10,785 bases of DNA from a virus (taxonomy: Duplodnaviria; Heunggongvirae; Uroviricota; Caudoviricetes): the IMG/VR virus record IMGVR_UViG_3300029647_000054, positions 1 through 10,785 of that record; one strand, 5' to 3'. Position 1 is the stretch's first letter, and each line of letters begins with the position of its first letter. Positions 5,576-10,785 of the stretch are shown here, piece after piece. The notes under the pieces were generated by a model, which saw nothing but the letters and a program-made list of their open reading frames with translations, was not told where the DNA came from and ran no database searches. Made by a program: the position numbers and the translations under genes.

Positions 5576-6404
5576 GGCTTACCCCCTTGCTGACTGGTTT
5601 TACCTGTGTCCTGACGTGCTGCACGTGGCGGGCAAATTTCTGCTCCCACTGAACCTGTGTGAAAACCTTCCCCTCCGCCATCCAGTAATCCCGGAATGCG
5701 GCAAGCTCTGCAGGTGTAAATTCCGGCTCAGGCAGAGCCATACCCCACACTGCTGCCCGTTGTCGAAAATCCGACGACGGCTGCCAGACAGTAGTCATCG
5801 AAAATTTCCCGATCGGTTCGCTCAGGCCGTCCAGGTATTCAGGTTCGGCTGTCTGCAACGGCGCACCATGCGACTCACCGGTTGGAGCACTCTCGCGCAT
5901 GCGCGCGTTATGTGTGGGGTTTAATTCTGTATCTGTATCTTTATCTGTCGTGACTTGTCGTGACAGATGCGTGACACGTCGTGACTCATCGTGACAATCA
6001 GCATCATATTTCCGCAGCTTTTCGCGCTCCCGCTGCGCTCTCTTGCGCTCTGCCGGGGATTTTGCCGTTTGCGAAACGTTACCATTGTCCTCTTTCAGCA
6101 CCTGACGTTTTTCCCATCCGGAAATAAGGTCACCATCCAGAACCCGCCCCTGCATTGCATGCAAAATTGAATCAATTACGTCTTCCGTCACATCAAGCGC
6201 ACTTGCTAAATCTTCCGTCGTGACATCAATGTGACCACGTAGTGACACGCCGTGACATGTCGTGACATTTCGTGACGCACTCACCAGAAGGTGGATATAC
6301 ACCGCCATCACTGTTGCGATTGGCTGTCCTGAGACCCTGGCAATGGTTCGCCATTTGGGATCATTTGGCATGTCATGCCACAATCTGAGCCAGGCATTAG
6401 CCAT
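5367..6404 (-). CDS. Replication initiator / replisome organizer (lambda O-like) with internal iterons (345 aa)
   Basis: N-terminus MANAWLRLWHDMPNDPKWR resembles phage replisome-organizer N-domains; iteron clusters inside the coding region; ATG at 6404 with SD GAGG at 5 nt (track start 6410 is GTG). Confidence 0.75.
   Translation of the reverse strand: MANAWLRLWHDMPNDPKWRTIARVSGQPIATVMAVYIHLLVSASRNVTTCHGVSLRGHIDVTTEDLASALDVTEDVIDSILHAMQGRVLDGDLISGWEKRQVLKEDNGNVSQTAKSPAERKRAQREREKLRKYDADCHDESRRVTHLSRQVTTDKDTDTELNPTHNARMRESAPTGESHGAPLQTAEPEYLDGLSEPIGKFSMTTVWQPSSDFRQRAAVWGMALPEPEFTPAELAAFRDYWMAEGKVFTQVQWEQKFARHVQHVRTQVKPVSKGVSHAASGGTASRAVQEIRAAREQWERDNGFISNGNGLEAVGAYGGGVFEPLDSEERGRTFEALDCPDWHDD
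5948..5995. repeat. Iteron cluster 1: five direct repeats of (T/G)CGTGAC at 10-11 bp spacing, preceded by a 6-bp periodic (TATCTG-like) tract
   Basis: CGTGAC at 5949, 5959, 5970, 5980, 5990; adjacent tract 5924-5947; read directly. Confidence 0.7.
6220..6276. repeat. Iteron cluster 2: six direct repeats of GTGAC at 10-11 bp spacing
   Basis: GTGAC at 6220, 6231, 6242, 6252, 6262, 6272; read directly; about 270 bp from cluster 1, both inside the O-like gene. Confidence 0.7.
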
Positions 6405-6472
6405 ACTCACCTCATCTGATACCGAACTTTACCCTCGAACATCCGGAAGAAATCCGGCATGAATATTGTTGG

Positions 6473-6898
6473 TCAATGCACGACAACAGCATTACCAGGC
6501 TGACCACCACTGTTAGTCAGGGTGCCCCAGGCGATCGCCGCTGCGACAAAATCATCCACATCTTTCACCAGCCGATCCCTCCGTTCGACGATCTCACGGT
6601 AATATTCAGAGCTGTGACTGCGCATACGGGCCACCAGCAAAGGCGGCATCGCCTTTTCGATCGCCGGTAACAGAGCCTGCATTTTTTCAACAGCATCAGG
6701 GGTGTCTTTATCCAGCCAACGGAAAATTTTCTGGGTATTACGGGCCAGGGCTTCCGGATGGCTGTCGTCATACAGTTCCGGGAACGTCATTCCCAGCTCG
6801 AAATACGCTTTGGTAATTTTCGCAGCCGGTACTTTTTCGCCGTCCGGATGCGCCCAGACATTCATCGCCATGCGGATGTGTTCATGCTTGATTTTCAT
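6473..6898 (-). CDS. YdaT-like protein in the cII position (141 aa)
   Basis: Starts MKIKHEHI and ends VVVH as I recall for Rac YdaT; ATG overlaps the Cro-like gene's TGA (ATGA); family assignment from memory only. Confidence 0.55.
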   Translation of the reverse strand: MKIKHEHIRMAMNVWAHPDGEKVPAAKITKAYFELGMTFPELYDDSHPEALARNTQKIFRWLDKDTPDAVEKMQALLPAIEKAMPPLLVARMRSHSSEYYREIVERRDRLVKDVDDFVAAAIAWGTLTNSGGQPGNAVVVH

Positions 6899-7158
6899 GA
6901 ATCAACTCCCAGCGCGGGTTGTGTGTTAGCCTGATAGTCAACAGGTATGCCATCGGTTGGGTTGGGGTAAGTACTGCTATCAATCTCGTGCGGGGTCACT
7001 ACCCACCCTGTTGCTTCACACCAGCGTAAAACTTTCCCCCCCGTAAGTTTCGCCCGTCCAGTAATAACATGGCTTACCATCCCTTGGGTTACCCCAACAA
7101 TTTCAGCAAAATCTTTCTGGGTTATACGGGAATGATGCAAATATTCTCCAAGATTCAT
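6895..7158 (-). CDS. Cro-like HTH transcriptional regulator (YdaS/Cro family, 87 aa)
   Basis: HTH segment QKDFAEIVGVTQGMVSHVITG; divergent from the CI-like repressor across an operator-containing intergenic region; SD GAGGTG 4 nt before ATG. Confidence 0.75.
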   Translation of the reverse strand: MNLGEYLHHSRITQKDFAEIVGVTQGMVSHVITGRAKLTGGKVLRWCEATGWVVTPHEIDSSTYPNPTDGIPVDYQANTQPALGVDS

Positions 7159-7188
7159 TGTTCACCTCATGTTATGTGACCATGAATA

Positions 7189-7230
7189 TTAATAGCATTG
7201 TTATTTTTAAAAGTAAATAGCACTGCTATT
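7189..7230. promoter_or_regulatory. OR-like region: two 15-bp palindromic operators plus a PR-like promoter for the Cro-like gene
   Basis: Operators AATAGCATTGTTATT (7191-7205) and AATAGCACTGCTATT (7216-7230); on the minus strand TTTACT (-35, 7217-7212), 17-nt spacer, TATTAA (-10, 7194-7189). Confidence 0.65.
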
Positions 7231-7265
7231 TCAAAGAGATTAATAATCTTATTAGAATTGAAGGT

Positions 7266-7766
7266 ATGAAAAGAAAACCCCTGTCAGAGATCGACCTGCA
7301 AGCCGCCCAGAGACTGAAAGAAATCTGGACGACGAAAAAAACTCAACTTGGGTTAACCCAAGAGCGTGCGGCAGAAATTCTGGGTTTTTCGACACAAGGG
7401 GCAGTAAGCCATTATCTAAATGGTCAGACACCTTTAAATCTAGAGGCTGTTATCAAGTTCGCTGGGTTGCTACAAGTTCCGCCTGAGTCAATTAGACCAG
7501 ATATGGCAGACTTGTTACGAATTGTAAGGATGTACCCCCAAGAACTGCAGCAGGATAATGTTGTCGCTTTACCCGCAGAGATGGAACAATCGGAAAACGA
7601 ACTTCCGTTTAATATAGAACCTATAGAGCGAGATTTGATCCAGACGTTCAGGGCTTTCCCAAAAGAAGACAAAGAGAAAATGCTTAAGGAAATGAAGGAG
7701 AAAAAAGAATCAATTGAAGAAACCGTTGCGCGGTGGCTAGAGGCGCAAAAAGGTCTTCGCGCCTAA
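7266..7766 (+). CDS. paaR: CI-like HTH repressor, regulator of the three-component TA module (PaaR-like, 166 aa); no S24 peptidase domain
   Basis: N-terminal HTH (LGLTQERAAEILGFSTQGAVSHYLNG); divergent from Cro-like gene; directly upstream of antitoxin-toxin pair; C-terminus too short and lacks a LexA-like autocleavage domain. Confidence 0.75.
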   Translation: MKRKPLSEIDLQAAQRLKEIWTTKKTQLGLTQERAAEILGFSTQGAVSHYLNGQTPLNLEAVIKFAGLLQVPPESIRPDMADLLRIVRMYPQELQQDNVVALPAEMEQSENELPFNIEPIERDLIQTFRAFPKEDKEKMLKEMKEKKESIEETVARWLEAQKGLRA

Positions 7767-7783
7767 TCTGAGGAGGTTAGAAC

Positions 7784-7975
7784 ATGAGTACAGTCCTTTC
7801 CCCGATAATTTCAGAATTTGAAACAATCGAACAAGAAAACAGCTATAACGAATGGTTACGCACCAAAGTGGCAGCAAGCCTCGCAGACCCCCGTCCTGCA
7901 ATTCCGCATGACGAAGTAATGGCTGAAATGGAAAACCTTATTGCGCAAATAGCTTCGACGAACAGGAGTGAGTAA
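7784..7975 (+). CDS. paaA: PaaA-like antitoxin (63 aa)
   Basis: 63-aa acidic protein immediately upstream of and overlapping (TAATG) the ParE toxin gene; matches my recollection of the PaaA2 antitoxin from E. coli O157 paaR2-paaA2-parE2; SD GAGGAGG at 8 nt. Confidence 0.7.
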   Translation: MSTVLSPIISEFETIEQENSYNEWLRTKVAASLADPRPAIPHDEVMAEMENLIAQIASTNRSE

Positions 7976-8265
7976 TGCTGCCCATTTTATGGCTACCTTC
8001 TGCGCGTGATGATTTGCGTCAGATCGTAGCCTATATTGCCAAGGAAAACCCTCCCGCTGCACGTAGACTAAAAATACGCATTGAAACATCAGTTTTGTCA
8101 CTTACTGAACACCCTTACCTGTATCCACCAAGCGAAAGAGCCCTAGGCCTTCGTGAGATAGTGACCCATCCTAACTACATAATACTTTACCGAGTAACAG
8201 CATCTAACATCGAGATCGTAAATGTAGTTCACTCACGAAGGCAGTATCCAAACAAAAGCTGTTAA
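7975..8265 (+). CDS. parE: ParE/RelE-superfamily toxin (ParE-like, 96 aa)
   Basis: Typical ParE sequence features (LPILWLPSARDDLRQIVAYI...EHPYLYPPSE...REIV); start overlaps antitoxin stop by 1 nt. Confidence 0.8.
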   Translation: MLPILWLPSARDDLRQIVAYIAKENPPAARRLKIRIETSVLSLTEHPYLYPPSERALGLREIVTHPNYIILYRVTASNIEIVNVVHSRRQYPNKSC

Positions 8266-8280
8266 TCATTCCTACCAACA

Positions 8281-8304
8281 ACCACCTTCGGGTGGTTTTT
8301 TTTT
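8281..8304 (+). terminator. Rho-independent terminator after parE
   Basis: ACCACC-TTCG-GGTGGT hairpin followed by a run of nine T. Confidence 0.8.
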
Positions 8305-8320
8305 CTTACCTCCAAAAAAC

Positions 8321-8362
8321 AATAGCATTACTATTTACAGAATAAAATAGCAGTGCTATTGT
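8321..8362 (+). promoter_or_regulatory. OL-like region: two 15-bp palindromic operators plus a PL-like promoter driving the dicB-type operon
   Basis: Operators AATAGCATTACTATT (8321-8335) and AATAGCAGTGCTATT (8346-8360); TTTACA (-35, 8334-8339), 17-nt spacer, TATTGT (-10, 8357-8362); mirrors the OR architecture. Confidence 0.65.
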
Positions 8363-8538
8363 TTATTCATCACCCACCCTCCCCACAGAATGCAGGGCAA
8401 TACTTCGAGTTACCCGGCAGTGGTCAGGGGTTAAGTAGCCAGCCCGAGGCGTATGAACATGACGGCGGGAACACTTTGTATAACAGCGCAGCAGGTTTTT
8501 GTTCCGCTACCCCGGCGTTAAGGGGAAATGAGGTCAGC

Positions 8539-8691
8539 ATGGATACTATCGAGCTTGGCAACAGCGAATCTCTGGTATGCGGCGTGTTTCCCAACCAGGA
8601 CGGCACGTTTACCGCGATGACGTATACCAGAAGCAAAACGTTTAAAACGGAAGCTGGCGCGCGTCGCTGGTTAGCAAGAAGCTCTGACTGA
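8539..8691 (+). CDS. Small protein (50 aa), first gene of the PL-type operon; possibly YdfA/YdaF (DUF1391)-like
   Basis: ATG with SD GAGG at 5 nt; in frame with the track ORF whose GTG start lies inside the operator; family assignment is positional only. Confidence 0.4.
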   Translation: MDTIELGNSESLVCGVFPNQDGTFTAMTYTRSKTFKTEAGARRWLARSSD

Positions 8692-8789
8692 TGAAGGTTA
8701 GTAATTAAAGAGTTCTCCACAGGCGAAGTGGAATACGTTCGCAGGACACGGGTAAGCATTCGGCATGCTCTTTAACAATCTGGGTATTC

Positions 8790-9236
8790 CTAACCACAAA
8801 GGAATCGCATCAATTTGGATTTTGCAGACAGTTTCTCTTGTTGTTCTACGGAGATTCCTATTTTGATCTGGGTTTTTAAGATTGCGATATCTTTAAGCGA
8901 CGACCAAATATTATCATCTGTTTTTTCCAGGAGCTTTAACTGCATTTTCAATTCCGAATCGGAATATTTTTCTGCATCATCATAAAGCTGCAGATATTCT
9001 GCGGATTTTCTCATTGCGTTACCTGACTTTTGTCCGAATCCGTAAATCGTTTGAACGGTTGCTATCACAACAATGAGAACTCCAGAAACTTCAGGAATAA
9101 ATCCACCAATGACAGATGAACCGAGGATAATACTCACCACTGAGAAAAGTTTATCGAGACGACCAGTCGCTACAGAGAATAGTTGTTCAAGAAAATAACC
9201 ATATAAAACCCTGTCAAGAATATCATCCCGGTCCAT
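8790..9236 (-). CDS. AT-rich two-TM membrane protein with coiled-coil-like C-terminus (148 aa); candidate superinfection-exclusion (sieB-position) protein
   Basis: Opposite strand to the surrounding operon; SD AGGTG at 8 nt; hydrophobic segments LFSVVSIILGSSVIGGFI and VLIVVIATVQTIYGF; clearly lower GC than neighbours; function inferred from position. Confidence 0.55.
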   Translation of the reverse strand: MDRDDILDRVLYGYFLEQLFSVATGRLDKLFSVVSIILGSSVIGGFIPEVSGVLIVVIATVQTIYGFGQKSGNAMRKSAEYLQLYDDAEKYSDSELKMQLKLLEKTDDNIWSSLKDIAILKTQIKIGISVEQQEKLSAKSKLMRFLCG

Positions 9237-9699: not shown

Positions 9700-9757
9700 C
9701 CATGTGTAGTATTTGGTGGCATCAGTTCTACTCCGTGACTGCTCTGCCACCCTTTTT
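9700..9757 (+). ncRNA. dicF: DicF-like small RNA (ftsZ-targeting sRNA family) with intrinsic terminator
   Basis: TTTGGTGGCATCAGTTCTACTCCGTGACTGCTCTGCCACCCTTTTT closely matches my recollection of K-12 DicF, with compensatory stem changes; sits directly upstream of dicB as in Qin. Confidence 0.7.
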
Positions 9758-9922: not shown

Positions 9923-9939
9923 TTGTTGAGGACGCGATA

Positions 9940-10128
9940 ATGGAAACGTTATTACCAAACGTTAATACGTCTGAAGGTTGTTTTGATATTGGTGTTCTGC
10001 TCAGTAACCGGGAGTTTACGGAAGATGCCATTAAGATGAGAAAATATGAACCTTATCTTCTCAATGATAATTCCATACTTTCCAGAATTGCCCTTCTTGA
10101 ACTTGGTATTATCGGAGAACAGCAGTGA
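9940..10128 (+). CDS. dicB: Cell division inhibitor DicB (62 aa)
   Basis: N-terminal 35 residues (METLLPNVNTSEGCFDIGV...FTEDAI) closely match K-12 DicB as recalled; C-terminus diverges; SD GAGGA at 7 nt. Confidence 0.85.
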   Translation: METLLPNVNTSEGCFDIGVLLSNREFTEDAIKMRKYEPYLLNDNSILSRIALLELGIIGEQQ

Positions 10129-10313: not shown

Positions 10314-10408
10314 CCCGCCAGCCATATTAACACCATACCAACGGATTAAAAATGCCAGCAATGGCAGGGATTCGTTCACCCTGAAATCTGTAATGAGGTT
10401 AAAACAAA

Positions 10409-10785
10409 ATGAGTAAAGTCTTTATTTGCGCCGCTATTCCTGACGAACTGGCAACAAGGGAAGAAGGCGCTGTGGCTGTAGCCACAGCCATTGAAGCTGG
10501 CGACGAACGCCGTGCTCGAGCAAAATTTCACTGGCAATTCCTGGAACATTATCCGGCTGCTCAGGACTGCGCTTATAAATTTATTGTCTGCGAGGATAAA
10601 CCCGGCATACCCCGCCCTGCCCTCGATTCATGGGATGCTGAATATATGCAGGAAAACCGCTGGGATGAGGAGTCTGCTTCCTTTGCCCCGGTTGAGACTG
10701 AATCAGATCCGATGAACGTCACTTTTGACAAGCTGGCCCCTGAAGTACAGAACGCTGTCATGGTTAAGTTCGACACATGTGAAAA
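10409..10785 (+). CDS. Partial CDS (runs off the window end, at least 125 aa), YdfE-position hypothetical protein
   Basis: ATG at 10409 with SD GAGG; open frame to the window end; not in the track because no stop is reached. Confidence 0.55.
   Translation, partial: MSKVFICAAIPDELATREEGAVAVATAIEAGDERRARAKFHWQFLEHYPAAQDCAYKFIVCEDKPGIPRPALDSWDAEYMQENRWDEESASFAPVETESDPMNVTFDKLAPEVQNAVMVKFDTCE

Follow-up and report, generated by a model that had tools for sequence, protein, structure and literature searches.

The stretch of 10,785 nucleotides analysed in our study (the window) very probably contains the immunity (lysis-lysogeny) region of a Qin / CP-933P-type lambdoid prophage from E. coli, in which a PaaA-ParE pair follows the repressor gene as cargo. 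The region has the order ydaT-like gene, Cro-like gene, OR, repressor gene, paaA, parE, terminator, OL/PL and ydfA (Table 1). The idea itself is not new, as it has been published that PaaA-ParE is co-transcribed with an immunity repressor and that the cro and dicB operons are controlled from OR and OL. The same architecture was shown experimentally for paaR2-paaA2-parE2/ydaS-ydaT of CP-933P (Jurenas 2021, PMC8630535; PMC9986795), where EMSA, DNase footprints and gfp fusions to PR, PRM, PL and PRE were used and bistability was described (PMC8630535). The window represents a different immunity type from that of CP-933P and is a further version of the published design.

This immunity type is present in 72 of 5426 complete E. 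coli genomes, O104:H4 and O145:H28 strains among them, and the entire module including the toxin-antitoxin (TA) pair was also found in 72. It was not found in isolated phage genomes, where the best CI reached 54% identity in the N-terminal domain (NTD) only and the C-terminal domain (CTD) was covered by no phage record. A PADLOC search returned no anti-phage defence match for the TA, the repressor or the neighbouring 148-aa ORF. The expectation that no separate CI-like repressor exists outside the window agrees with the prophage L001 (98.5-99.5% identical to the window), in which no other repressor is annotated between int and the capsid gene.

In L001 some genes are frameshifted or partial, and the dicB region is separated from exo by an IS4. 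Therefore, the switch may no longer decide between lysis and lysogeny, which speaks against our main reading. It is quite possible, although we would not put it first, that the region is a domesticated remnant in a defective prophage, in which the switch is kept only to silence the toxic early genes dicB, dicF, ydaT and cro and the TA makes this silencing cassette hard to lose. The relatives CP-933P and Qin are both cryptic, yet their bistable switches still work (PMC8630535; PMC10448788). However, genes for integrase, excisionase, replication, lysis, terminase and capsid have been retained in L001, and there is no IS4 in the window itself. Domestication would refine the immunity-region explanation and does not contradict it.

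Table 1. Genes, predicted promoters, predicted operators and other elements of the immunity region (positions in the window; operator scores from the PWM scan).
Feature	Position	Strand	Details
ydaT-like gene (CII analogue, 141 aa)	6473..6898	-	PF06254, 2.6e-10
YdaT box TTGATTTTCATGAATCAA	6888..6905		cro/ydaT junction; marks putative PRE analogue
Cro-like HTH repressor gene, 87 aa, first gene of PR operon	6895..7158	-	HTH_3 4.9e-6; phrog_35 3.7e-16
PR-like promoter	7189..7217	-	-35 TTTACT (7217-7212), 17-nt spacer, extended -10 TGC-TATTAA (7194-7189); read from sequence
OR1-like predicted operator AATAGCATTGTTATT	7191..7205		covers PR spacer and -10; 24.1 bits
OR2-like predicted operator AATAGCACTGCTATT	7216..7230		overlaps PR -35, abuts PRM -35; 25.0 bits
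PRM-like promoter	7230..7258	+	TTCAAA-17-TAGAAT; consensus scan
Tentative weak OR3-like candidate ATTAATAATCTTATT	7239..7253		in PRM spacer and -10; 7.6 bits
Immunity repressor gene, 166 aa	7266..7766	+	HTH_3 only
paaA antitoxin gene, 63 aa	7784..7975	+	PF21217, 2.9e-22
parE toxin gene, 96 aa	7975..8265	+	PF05016, 4e-18
Intrinsic terminator, t_imm analogue	8280..8306	+	7-bp stem at 8280-8297, UUCG loop, then 9 T
OL distal predicted operator AATAGCATTACTATT	8321..8335		overlaps PL -35; 23.0 bits
PL / dicBp-like promoter	8334..8362	+	TTTACA-17-TGC-TATTGT, extended -10; consensus scan
OL proximal predicted operator AATAGCAGTGCTATT	8346..8360		covers PL spacer and -10; 25.0 bits
ydfA (DUF1391), first gene of PL operon	8539..8691	+	PF07151, 3.6e-27
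DicF sRNA, PL operon	9701..9752	+	Rfam RF00039, 62 bits
dicB, cell-division inhibitor, PL operon	9940..10128	+	annotated in locus L001; phrog_1251 2e-40

Repressor protein, operators and promoters

The first-pass annotation had described the repressor as PaaR-like. This applies to the C-terminal ~45-64 aa, whereas the NTD turned out to be a genuine homologue of the lambda CI NTD. The protein comprises a lambda-CI-type NTD of the five-helix HTH fold (~1-89), a disordered linker (90-118) and a two-helix CTD of the PaaR/DicA type (119-165). In a phmmer search residues 2-82 matched the lambda cI NTD at 1.6e-9, with 37-38% identity, and the top 11 Foldseek matches were all lambda cI, with TM values of 0.84-0.94 for NTD-only chains. 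The NTD also resembles that of lambda in that its N-terminal arm is basic and that acidic residues align with E34 and D38, which form the positive-control patch of lambda. After the disordered linker the AF2 model contains two helices only, and no S24/PF00717 (LexA-type cleavage) domain was matched in the repressor, as had been claimed. Therefore, the protein belongs only in part to the CI/LexA family, though it should act like a member on DNA. Its CTD (44-64 aa) is 48-56% identical to the PaaR proteins of the paaR2-type locus L004 and of L002 and resembles the CTD of DicA (E 1e-4, 25% identity). No relation between its NTD and that of PaaR2 was detectable, and PDB 7nkv was retrieved with PaaR2 alone. 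For placing the CTD fold, neither a full-length PaaR2 nor a CTD structure was found among the PaaR2 entries, which cover the NTD only (7nkv, 8c3k, 8c3l).

Four sites of the 15-bp consensus AATAGCA-N-TGCTATT in two pairs had been proposed as operators. A search with AATAGCANTGCTATT allowing <=2 mismatches recovered exactly these four in the window, each with <=1 mismatch, and the spacing within both pairs is exactly 25 bp. By chance 0.05 such palindromes were expected, and none of 200 shuffles gave four (0/200). Moreover, with a PWM trained on 15 sites from four loci the four predicted operators scored 23-25 bits, and no other site in the window exceeded 9.5 bits. The chance expectation, the shuffles and the PWM scores led us to reject that the palindromes arose by chance or as an artefact. 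The first pair is located between the Cro-like gene and the repressor gene and the second just past the terminator of the repressor-paaA-parE operon. Both overlap outward promoters of identical geometry, which bears out the same-design promoters suggested earlier: in PR as well as in PL the distal operator and the -35 share 2 nt, while the proximal operator occupies the spacer and extends 4 nt into the -10. PR was missing from the consensus promoter scan because its -10 (TATTAA) is without the usually conserved T at -7; this deviation and the failed scan count against our main reading. The PR design is conserved in the related loci L003 and L012. PL occupies the same place as dicBp in Qin and precedes the conserved ydfA leader, and from Qin it is known that an immunity repressor represses the dicB promoter (PMC10448788).

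The -10 of the predicted PRM ends only 7 nt upstream of the repressor ATG, which predicts a leaderless repressor mRNA. A -10-to-ATG spacing of 6-7 nt is also seen in L002, L003, L004, L010 and L012, L009 being ambiguous, and for paaR2 the leaderless mRNA was established by experiment (PMC8630535). The centre of the OR2-like site lies at -43 relative to the predicted PRM start, compared to -42 in lambda, whose cI mRNA is leaderless as well. At the +23 offset of the OR3-like candidate, weak sites were also seen in L003 (12.4 bits), L006 (7.6) and L012 (9.9). Since the candidate in the window is weak (7.6 bits), negative autoregulation is uncertain. The PWM scan gave no third OL operator above background. 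Hence, there are two strong operators per side, with a weak third candidate at OR only, and the lambda-type tripartite arrangement at both OR and OL is not found in the window, which is a further point against our main reading.

The terminator had been called strong, which its folding energy supports (-10.4 kcal/mol, z = -3.3); it ends the repressor-TA operon and insulates PL from read-through. In the consensus scan no internal promoter for paaA-parE was found on the + strand within the repressor gene. On the opposite side of the region, the YdaT box is the only perfect match in the window to the published TTGATT-N6-AATCAA, and the YdaT site footprinted in CP-933P occupies the same place (PMC9986795). 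The YdaT box with the PRE analogue, the leaderless PRM, the possible weak OR3 and DicF were absent from the first-pass annotation.

Comparison across immunity types

Each immunity type has its own repeats common to OR and OL. The cro HTH, OR, repressor NTD and OL are type-specific, whereas the CTD, paaA and parE are shared, and the latter three form one conserved block in at least 5 immunity types. This mosaic profile suggests that the repressor gene recombines at its domain boundary. The Cro-like protein has an immunity-type-specific N-terminal HTH and a C-terminus common to other types. In L003 the repressor is 80% identical to that of the window and in the metagenomic loci L012-L014 the NTD is 77% identical; all keep the same motif in a 2+2 arrangement, one pair at OR and one before the leftward promoter, with a spacing of 25-26 bp within each pair. 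The outer operator positions AATA/TATT are invariant in 15/15 sites. In L012 the TA is replaced by HipA_2/DUF3037, and the OR-OL distance is 3 kb. As the operators are kept while the TA is exchanged, the operators would track the repressor's DNA-binding domain, and the TA would be cargo in the rexAB slot. This supports the earlier assignment of the two operator pairs to the promoters of the Cro/replication and dicB operons, where they would act as OR and OL, since the motif and the 2+2 geometry recur also with other cargo. For CP-933P it has been said outright that paaA2-parE2 replaces rexA/rexB (Prolic-Kalinsek 2023, PMC9986795), and the first-pass annotation had placed the TA in the same slot.

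It was also considered that the Cro-like protein alone, or a host factor, binds the palindromes and that the repressor has a different target. Cro-type proteins normally use the same operators as the repressor. Nevertheless, the motif follows the repressor NTD at 77-100% NTD identity, other repeats occur where NTD and Cro HTH differ, and exclusive binding by Cro would leave a lambda-CI-type NTD without an operator. This makes such an explanation highly improbable, although NTD and Cro HTH vary together, so that binding by the repressor and binding by Cro cannot be told apart from the comparison alone.

The toxin-antitoxin pair

Behind the repressor gene a 63-aa antitoxin and a ParE toxin had been predicted, and both assignments held. 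PaaA matches PaaA2 (PDB 3zbe, 1.7e-22) and ParE matches ParE2 (PDB 5cw7_B, 5.7e-35). paaA is preceded by a strong SD (GAGGAGG), and its stop overlaps the parE start (TAATG), so parE is translationally coupled to paaA. No DNA-binding domain was found in PaaA, in which only the 33-residue PaaA2 toxin-binding motif was matched; the DNA-binding antitoxin of canonical type II autoregulation is thus not present. That the TA would instead be regulated by the immunity repressor, as proposed in the first-pass annotation, is supported by the comparison of diverged loci and by the CP-933P experiments (PMC8630535).

paaR-paaA-parE was originally described as a tripartite TA (Hallez 2010, as reviewed in PMC4803016), and the counts of 72 genomes with the immunity type and 72 with the whole module would also suit an autonomous three-component system. 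The 166-aa protein would then chiefly regulate paaA-parE, its position in a prophage would be incidental and the second operator pair would be TA-related and not OL. We regard this as very unlikely, because the same NTD and operator set occurs in L012-L014 with cargo that is not homologous to a TA, the second pair overlaps the ydfA-dicF-dicB promoter at the Qin dicBp position, and the NTD is a lambda CI homologue whose gene is divergent from cro-ydaT. The published reassessment of PaaR2 also concludes against it (PMC8630535).

A direct role of the TA in the switch has to be weighed as well. Here the PaaA-ParE complex would be a co-repressor at OR/OL or a modulator of the repressor, and proteolysis of PaaA under stress would derepress the prophage, replacing the missing route of RecA cleavage. 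According to the same review (PMC4803016), PaaA2-ParE2 partly represses the paaR2 promoter and full repression needs PaaR2 (Hallez 2010); besides, the CTD, paaA and parE travel as the conserved block described above. However, no ternary complex was detected in the work covered there, PaaA is without a DNA-binding domain and no activity of ParE2 was detected in either state of the CP-933P switch (PMC8630535). The same CTD also occurs without any TA in DicA and L012-L014. The TA as the reason for the conserved CTD is likewise weakened, as this CTD is found with other cargo or none. We therefore consider a co-repressor role improbable. The broader proposal that the TA is wired into the switch is equally doubtful; it includes modulation of OR/OL by the TA complex, or by free ParE via gyrase and supercoiling, with PaaA proteolysis in place of RecA cleavage, or a TA that blocks immunity swapping by recombination through its position between NTD/OR and OL. 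Within the immunity-region reading, PaaA most likely forms with ParE an addiction module that would stabilise the immunity region or the prophage, analogous to the proposal made for paaA2-parE2. The undetected activity of ParE2 in the CP-933P system makes this role of the TA less certain.

Proposed switch and related systems

Gene order, operators, promoter geometry, terminator, repressor domains, YdaT box and mosaic structure were taken directly from the sequence and the comparison. The steps of the mechanism were derived by analogy with lambda, CP-933P and Qin, the homologues that have been characterised. The 166-aa repressor would bind as a dimer to each of the four 15-bp palindromes, with cooperativity between the two sites of a 25-bp pair. 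As the proximal half-site TGCTATT doubles as the TGn and the start of the -10 of PR or PL, bound repressor would exclude RNA polymerase at both promoters. The rightward cro-ydaT-replication operon and the leftward ydfA-dicF-dicB-exo-xis-int operon would be silenced. From OR2 (-43 of PRM) the repressor would stimulate its own leaderless transcript, which would also carry paaA and parE and stop at the terminator just before OL/PL. Since it is on the repressor transcript, the TA would be expressed in the lysogenic state, as rexAB in lambda. Two dimers at OR and two at OL, 1.13 kb apart, could form an octamer and a DNA loop via the helical CTD, as extrapolated from PaaR2 and lambda CI. Cro would compete for the sites of the repressor, and YdaT at its box (6888-6905) would drive a PRE-like transcript toward the repressor gene. 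Because the repressor is without a cleavage domain, switching should be SOS-independent, either stochastic/bistable or antirepressor-driven. A Rem-type antirepressor is known for DicA; a search of the window and of 42 kb of the near-identical prophage revealed no homologue.

The comparison with published paaR2-paaA2-parE2 sequences, which had been suggested for verification, revealed the same architecture with a different NTD, Cro HTH and operators. The gene order is that of CP-933P in E. coli O157:H7 (ydaT, cro/ydaS, OR, repressor, paaA, parE, terminator, OL/PL, ydfA). The antitoxin is 71% and the toxin 64% identical at the amino acid level, the repressor CTD 48% and YdaT 91% (to the copy beside L004). 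Both share the YdaT box, the leaderless-PRM geometry and a non-cleavable repressor, and in both the operators and promoter elements of PL match those of PR. In contrast, the repressor NTD, Cro HTH and operators of CP-933P are unrelated to those of the window: 18-bp GTTTAGTAA-type inverted repeats overlap pseudo-symmetric operators there, with 3-4 per side, whereas the window has four clean 15-bp palindromes (2+2), and its repressor has 166 aa compared to 123 aa in L004. The closest TA proteins (PaaA 86%, ParE 88%) belong to a second paaR-paaA-parE system of EDL933 (L002 type), which is presumably the CP-933M paralogue referred to in PMC8630535. It has the same flanking genes and a repressor CTD with 56% identity, but a 133-aa repressor with another HTH and ACAATAAAAAACTGT-type operators at OR and OL.

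In Qin, for which Bejar and Bouche reportedly described the order dicC-dicA-dicBp-ydfABC-dicF-dicB in 1988, the repressor is also short and non-cleavable, with a helical CTD and a divergent Cro-like gene. The combination of an HTH NTD with a helical CTD and a predicted dicBp-type promoter upstream of ydfA-dicF-dicB assigns the repressor of the window to the DicA type on sequence grounds. In both, operators occupy the two intergenic regions, a PL-like promoter immediately precedes the conserved ydfA leader, and dicF and dicB come after it; for Qin a bistable switch was described (PMC10448788). However, Qin has no cargo between dicA and dicBp, NTD and operators differ, and ydaT and the right-side replication genes were lost. 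Rac racR-ydaS-ydaT shows the same arrangement, with analogues of CI, Cro and CII, and its YdaT box activates a reverse promoter toward the repressor gene (PMC11879457), but there is no TA behind racR and the specificity of repressor and operators is different. In lambda, too, accessory genes are transcribed together with the repressor gene, and termination follows just before OL/PL. The differences are that the window repressor has a two-helix CTD instead of the S24 autocleavage and oligomerisation domain, that there are two strong operators of 15 bp per side instead of three of 17 bp, that the cargo is a ParE-type TA instead of RexAB and that CII is replaced by the unrelated YdaT.

In published work PaaR2 was called a CI analogue 'despite lacking sequence similarity'. 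As the repressor of the window is demonstrably homologous to lambda CI, unlike the published PaaR2, it links the short non-cleavable class of PaaR and DicA to the CI family. The operator layout is unusually clean and minimal, with a half-site that is at the same time the extended -10, and would offer a convenient model for cooperativity and looping. Moreover, comparative evidence indicates that cargo is carried in the slot between repressor gene and OL, namely PaaA-ParE in some loci and HipA_2/DUF3037 in others.

Organization of the immunity region and its operators

The window is a segment of an Escherichia coli lambdoid prophage and is 98.5-99.5% identical to the SW070917 prophage adjoining potC. 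The match to the near-identical comparison prophage L001 ends at 10367, the point of an IS4 insertion in L001, and 10368-10785 of the window differs. On the far side of the ydaT-like gene lie a replication gene with a DnaT domain, placed like lambda O, and a gene resembling lambda P. The Cro-like and repressor genes are separated by a spacer of 107 bp, and the parE ATG overlaps the paaA stop codon.

Features of the immunity region and the adjoining operons
Feature	Position	Strand	Description or basis
ydaT-like gene	6473-6898	-	PF06254
Cro-like HTH gene, 87 aa	6895-7158	-	ORF and domain search
PR promoter	7217-7189	-	TTTACT-17-(TGC)TATTAA; read from sequence; design as PL
PRM-like promoter	7230-7258		TTCAAA-17-TAGAAT; promoter scan
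Repressor, HTH_3 protein, 166 aa	7266-7766	+	ORF and domain search
PaaA antitoxin, 63 aa	7784-7975		PF21217
ParE toxin, 96 aa	7975-8265		PF05016
Terminator	8280-8306		Hairpin, UUCG loop and T9
PL promoter	8334-8362		TTTACA-17-TATTGT, TG before -10; promoter scan
ydfA	8539-8691		
DicF sRNA	9701-9752		
dicB	9940-10128		

Across the whole window the motif AATAGCANTGCTATT matched four times, each with at most one mismatch, and nowhere else at two or fewer mismatches; 0.05 matches were expected and four were reached in none of 200 shuffles. The sites start at 7191 and 7216 in the cro-repressor spacer (OR) and at 8321 and 8346 beyond the terminator (OL), with a spacing of exactly 25 bp within each pair. 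A position weight matrix trained on 15 sites from four loci gave 23-25 bits for these operators and 9.5 bits for the next position in the window. This fifth-best match, AATGGAAACGTTATT at 9939-9953, overlaps the dicB start codon and is probably due to chance. PR and PL are built alike: the distal operator shares 2 nt with the -35 element and the proximal operator spans the spacer plus 4 nt of the -10 element, so that the half-site TGCTATT is also the extended -10 element. PR was missing from the promoter-scan list because its -10 element lacks the T at -7. The first-pass annotation was accurate in describing four sites in two pairs with matched outward promoters.

A hok/sok type I toxin-antitoxin (TA) system lies at 140-464 on the minus strand, with a sok RNA (RF01794, 117.6 bits, 290-464) and a hok-like ORF (140-352) annotated as hokD in L001; the prophage therefore has a second, unrelated TA. 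In the interval from ydfA to dicF, an ORF of 148 aa (8790-9236, minus strand), convergent to the PL operon and with a hydrophobic central stretch, occupies the ydfB/ydfC position of Qin and of the comparison loci L002 and L003. It matches phrog_6315, a family of unassigned function, and gave no match in Pfam or PADLOC; it may be a moron or serve in exclusion.

The chimeric repressor and its probable cargo slot

Residues 2-82 of the repressor align with the N-terminal domain (NTD) of lambda cI (E 1.6e-9). The AlphaFold model (mean pLDDT 76) comprises five helices (8-89), a disordered linker (90-118) and two further helices (119-165), and its best Foldseek matches were all lambda cI, with target-normalised TM-scores of 0.84-0.94 against NTD-only chains and 37-38% identity in close alignments of about 81-90 columns. 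Over its C-terminal 44-64 residues the repressor shares 48-56% identity with the PaaR C-termini of two other E. coli loci, and this part also resembles the Qin DicA C-terminus (E 1e-4). The repressor therefore joins a DNA-binding domain of the CI type to a helical domain of the PaaR/DicA type and is not PaaR-like along its whole length; the earlier label holds for the C-terminal domain (CTD) but not for the NTD. As previously noted, a LexA-type cleavage domain is lacking, since the domain search found no S24/LexA domain in the repressor.

Among eleven paaA-parE loci, at least five types of immunity can be told apart; their repressors measure 123, 132 (two types), 133 and 166 aa, and every type has its own repeats common to the cro-repressor spacer and the post-terminator region. 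Nucleotide identity between the window and four other types revealed a mosaic. Shared segments are ydaT (76-92%), the repressor CTD with paaA and parE (57-84%) and the PL leader with ydfA (85-92%); the cro gene, OR and the repressor NTD and linker (32-58%) as well as the terminator and OL (32-46%) are type-specific. Divergence in cro is limited to the HTH part, and the junction in the repressor gene at about nt 7620 coincides with the predicted domain boundary. The PL leader (about 170 nt, 8366-8538), conserved at this level in all immunity types, closely matches at its 3' end the sequence immediately 5' of Qin ydfA. Since the adjacent promoter and operator are far less conserved, a functional leader is suggested, possibly with a role in processing, as an antitermination site or as an RNA structure.

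Two loci with repressors 80% and 89% identical (L003 and L006) keep the four operators, with changes at inner positions only. In three metagenomic relatives (L012-L014) the first repressor domain is 77% identical to the NTD of the window, and the TA is absent, the cargo being HipA_2 (PF20613) and DUF3037. The operator motif occurs there as two pairs with 25-26 bp spacing: the first lies in the cro-repressor spacer, and the second, 3 kb from it, overlaps a TTGACC-17-TATTGT promoter. Taken over all loci, none of the 15 sites varies at the outer AATA/TATT positions. As the operators are kept with the CI-type domain despite other cargo, they track the DNA-binding domain and not the TA. At the sequence level, this co-occurrence offers the strongest in silico support for the earlier proposal that the TA regulator would be the prophage immunity repressor itself, with the TA as cargo. 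At 4001-6360 of L012, and also in L013 and L014, the repressor has 244 aa, with two dissimilar HTHs in tandem (a CI NTD of the window type and one of the L009 type) and a PaaR/DicA-type CTD, and the HipA_2 and DUF3037 genes follow it. The locus of E. coli RM10466 (L011, 981-1832) carries two tandem repressor genes ahead of paaA, a 123-aa PaaR2-like gene followed by an HTH gene with a PaaR-type CTD overlapping the paaA start, an arrangement that points to the conserved CTD segment as a place of duplication or recombination.

The OR and NTD segment was present in 72 of 5426 complete E. coli genomes; in this set the whole 6400-8700 module including the TA also occurred in 72 genomes, and a paaA-parE-like pair of any type in 841. 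The immunity type of the window was not found among sequenced phage isolates. In the EDL933 assembly GCF_029962285.1 the second paaR-paaA-parE prophage region (L002) is placed on the 286-kb NZ_CP124741.1, labelled 'plasmid unnamed2', probably through an assembly or labelling artefact.

Sister systems and the proposed switch

Using EMSA, footprinting, 5' RACE and gfp fusions, Jurenas et al. 2021 described PaaR2, YdaS and YdaT of the CP-933P type as analogues of CI, Cro and CII; PaaR2 and YdaS bind to the operators in the intergenic region and repress PR and PRM, and beyond the TA a PL with similar operators, whose -35 and -10 elements are the same as in PR, is repressed by both proteins (PMC8630535). 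This locus is bistable and its TA addictive (PMC8630535). Among our loci L004 (ST131) carries the published system, with a repressor starting MQKKE, a 97-bp intergenic region with GTTTAGT repeats, and an antitoxin and toxin that match the PaaA2 and ParE2 chains in the PDB along the parts that align. The comparison with paaR2-paaA2-parE2 thus finds the same architecture already demonstrated by experiment (PMC8630535). The placement of the TA in the slot of lambda rexAB has likewise been stated for the sister pair, where paaA2-parE2 replaces rexA/rexB and PaaR2 replaces CI (PMC9986795). In Qin, dicBp, 5' of ydfA-dicF-dicB, is the PL analogue; the non-cleavable DicA represses it, and DicC takes the part of Cro (PMC10448788); the Qin sequence has the layout of the window but without cargo. 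Therefore, all elements of the earlier interpretation are already published, for sister alleles.

The first-pass annotation did not include the PRM-like promoter, a candidate third OR site or a YdaT box. The -10 end of the PRM-like promoter lies 7 nt 5' of the repressor ATG and a usable Shine-Dalgarno sequence is absent, so that a leaderless repressor mRNA is predicted. A gap of 6-7 nt was also found in L002, L003, L004, L010 and L012 (L009 is ambiguous), and leaderless translation of the paaR2 mRNA has been demonstrated experimentally (PMC8630535). The OR2-like site (7216) is centred at -43 relative to this promoter. The weak site ATTAATAATCTTATT (7239-7253, 7.6 bits by the matrix), within the PRM spacer and -10 element, recurs at an identical +23 offset in three diverged loci (7.6-12.4 bits) and may tentatively be regarded as an OR3 candidate. 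Only one place in the window, 6888-6905 at the cro/ydaT junction, agrees perfectly with the published YdaT recognition sequence TTGATT-N6-AATCAA; in CP-933P the YdaT footprint is at this junction (PMC9986795).

For the window allele, we infer that repressor dimers would bind cooperatively to the two sites of each pair, 25 bp apart, and occlude both PR and PL, and that OR2-bound repressor probably contacts sigma-70 at PRM. In lambda, E34 and D38 have a positive-control role, and glutamates of the repressor line up with these residues in the cI NTD alignment. The PRM transcript would give repressor, PaaA and ParE and stop at the terminator, which, like lambda t_imm, would block read-through into the co-directional PL operon. 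Cro would compete for the sites of the repressor, and YdaT at 6888-6905 would activate a PRE-like promoter. Since four dimers on four sites fit the octamer that PaaR2 and lambda CI are reported to form (PMC8630535), a 1.13-kb loop between OR and OL appears plausible by analogy. As the repressor lacks a cleavage domain and no Rem-type antirepressor was found in the window or in 42 kb of the near-identical prophage, SOS-independent, stochastic switching would be expected, in line with reports on CP-933P and Qin. Most likely the TA would stabilise the immunity region or the prophage; a defence role is possible, although PADLOC gave no hit for the TA.

The observation of a TA within an immunity operon bracketed by operator pairs is confirmed and its interpretation supported, but the architecture has been characterised before, and the system adds a heteroimmune member to it. 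Its points of interest, of value to specialists and unsurprising, are a repressor in the PaaR position whose homology to lambda CI can be demonstrated, operators in a very clean 2+2 layout and the evidence of a variable cargo slot reaching from the repressor gene to OL.
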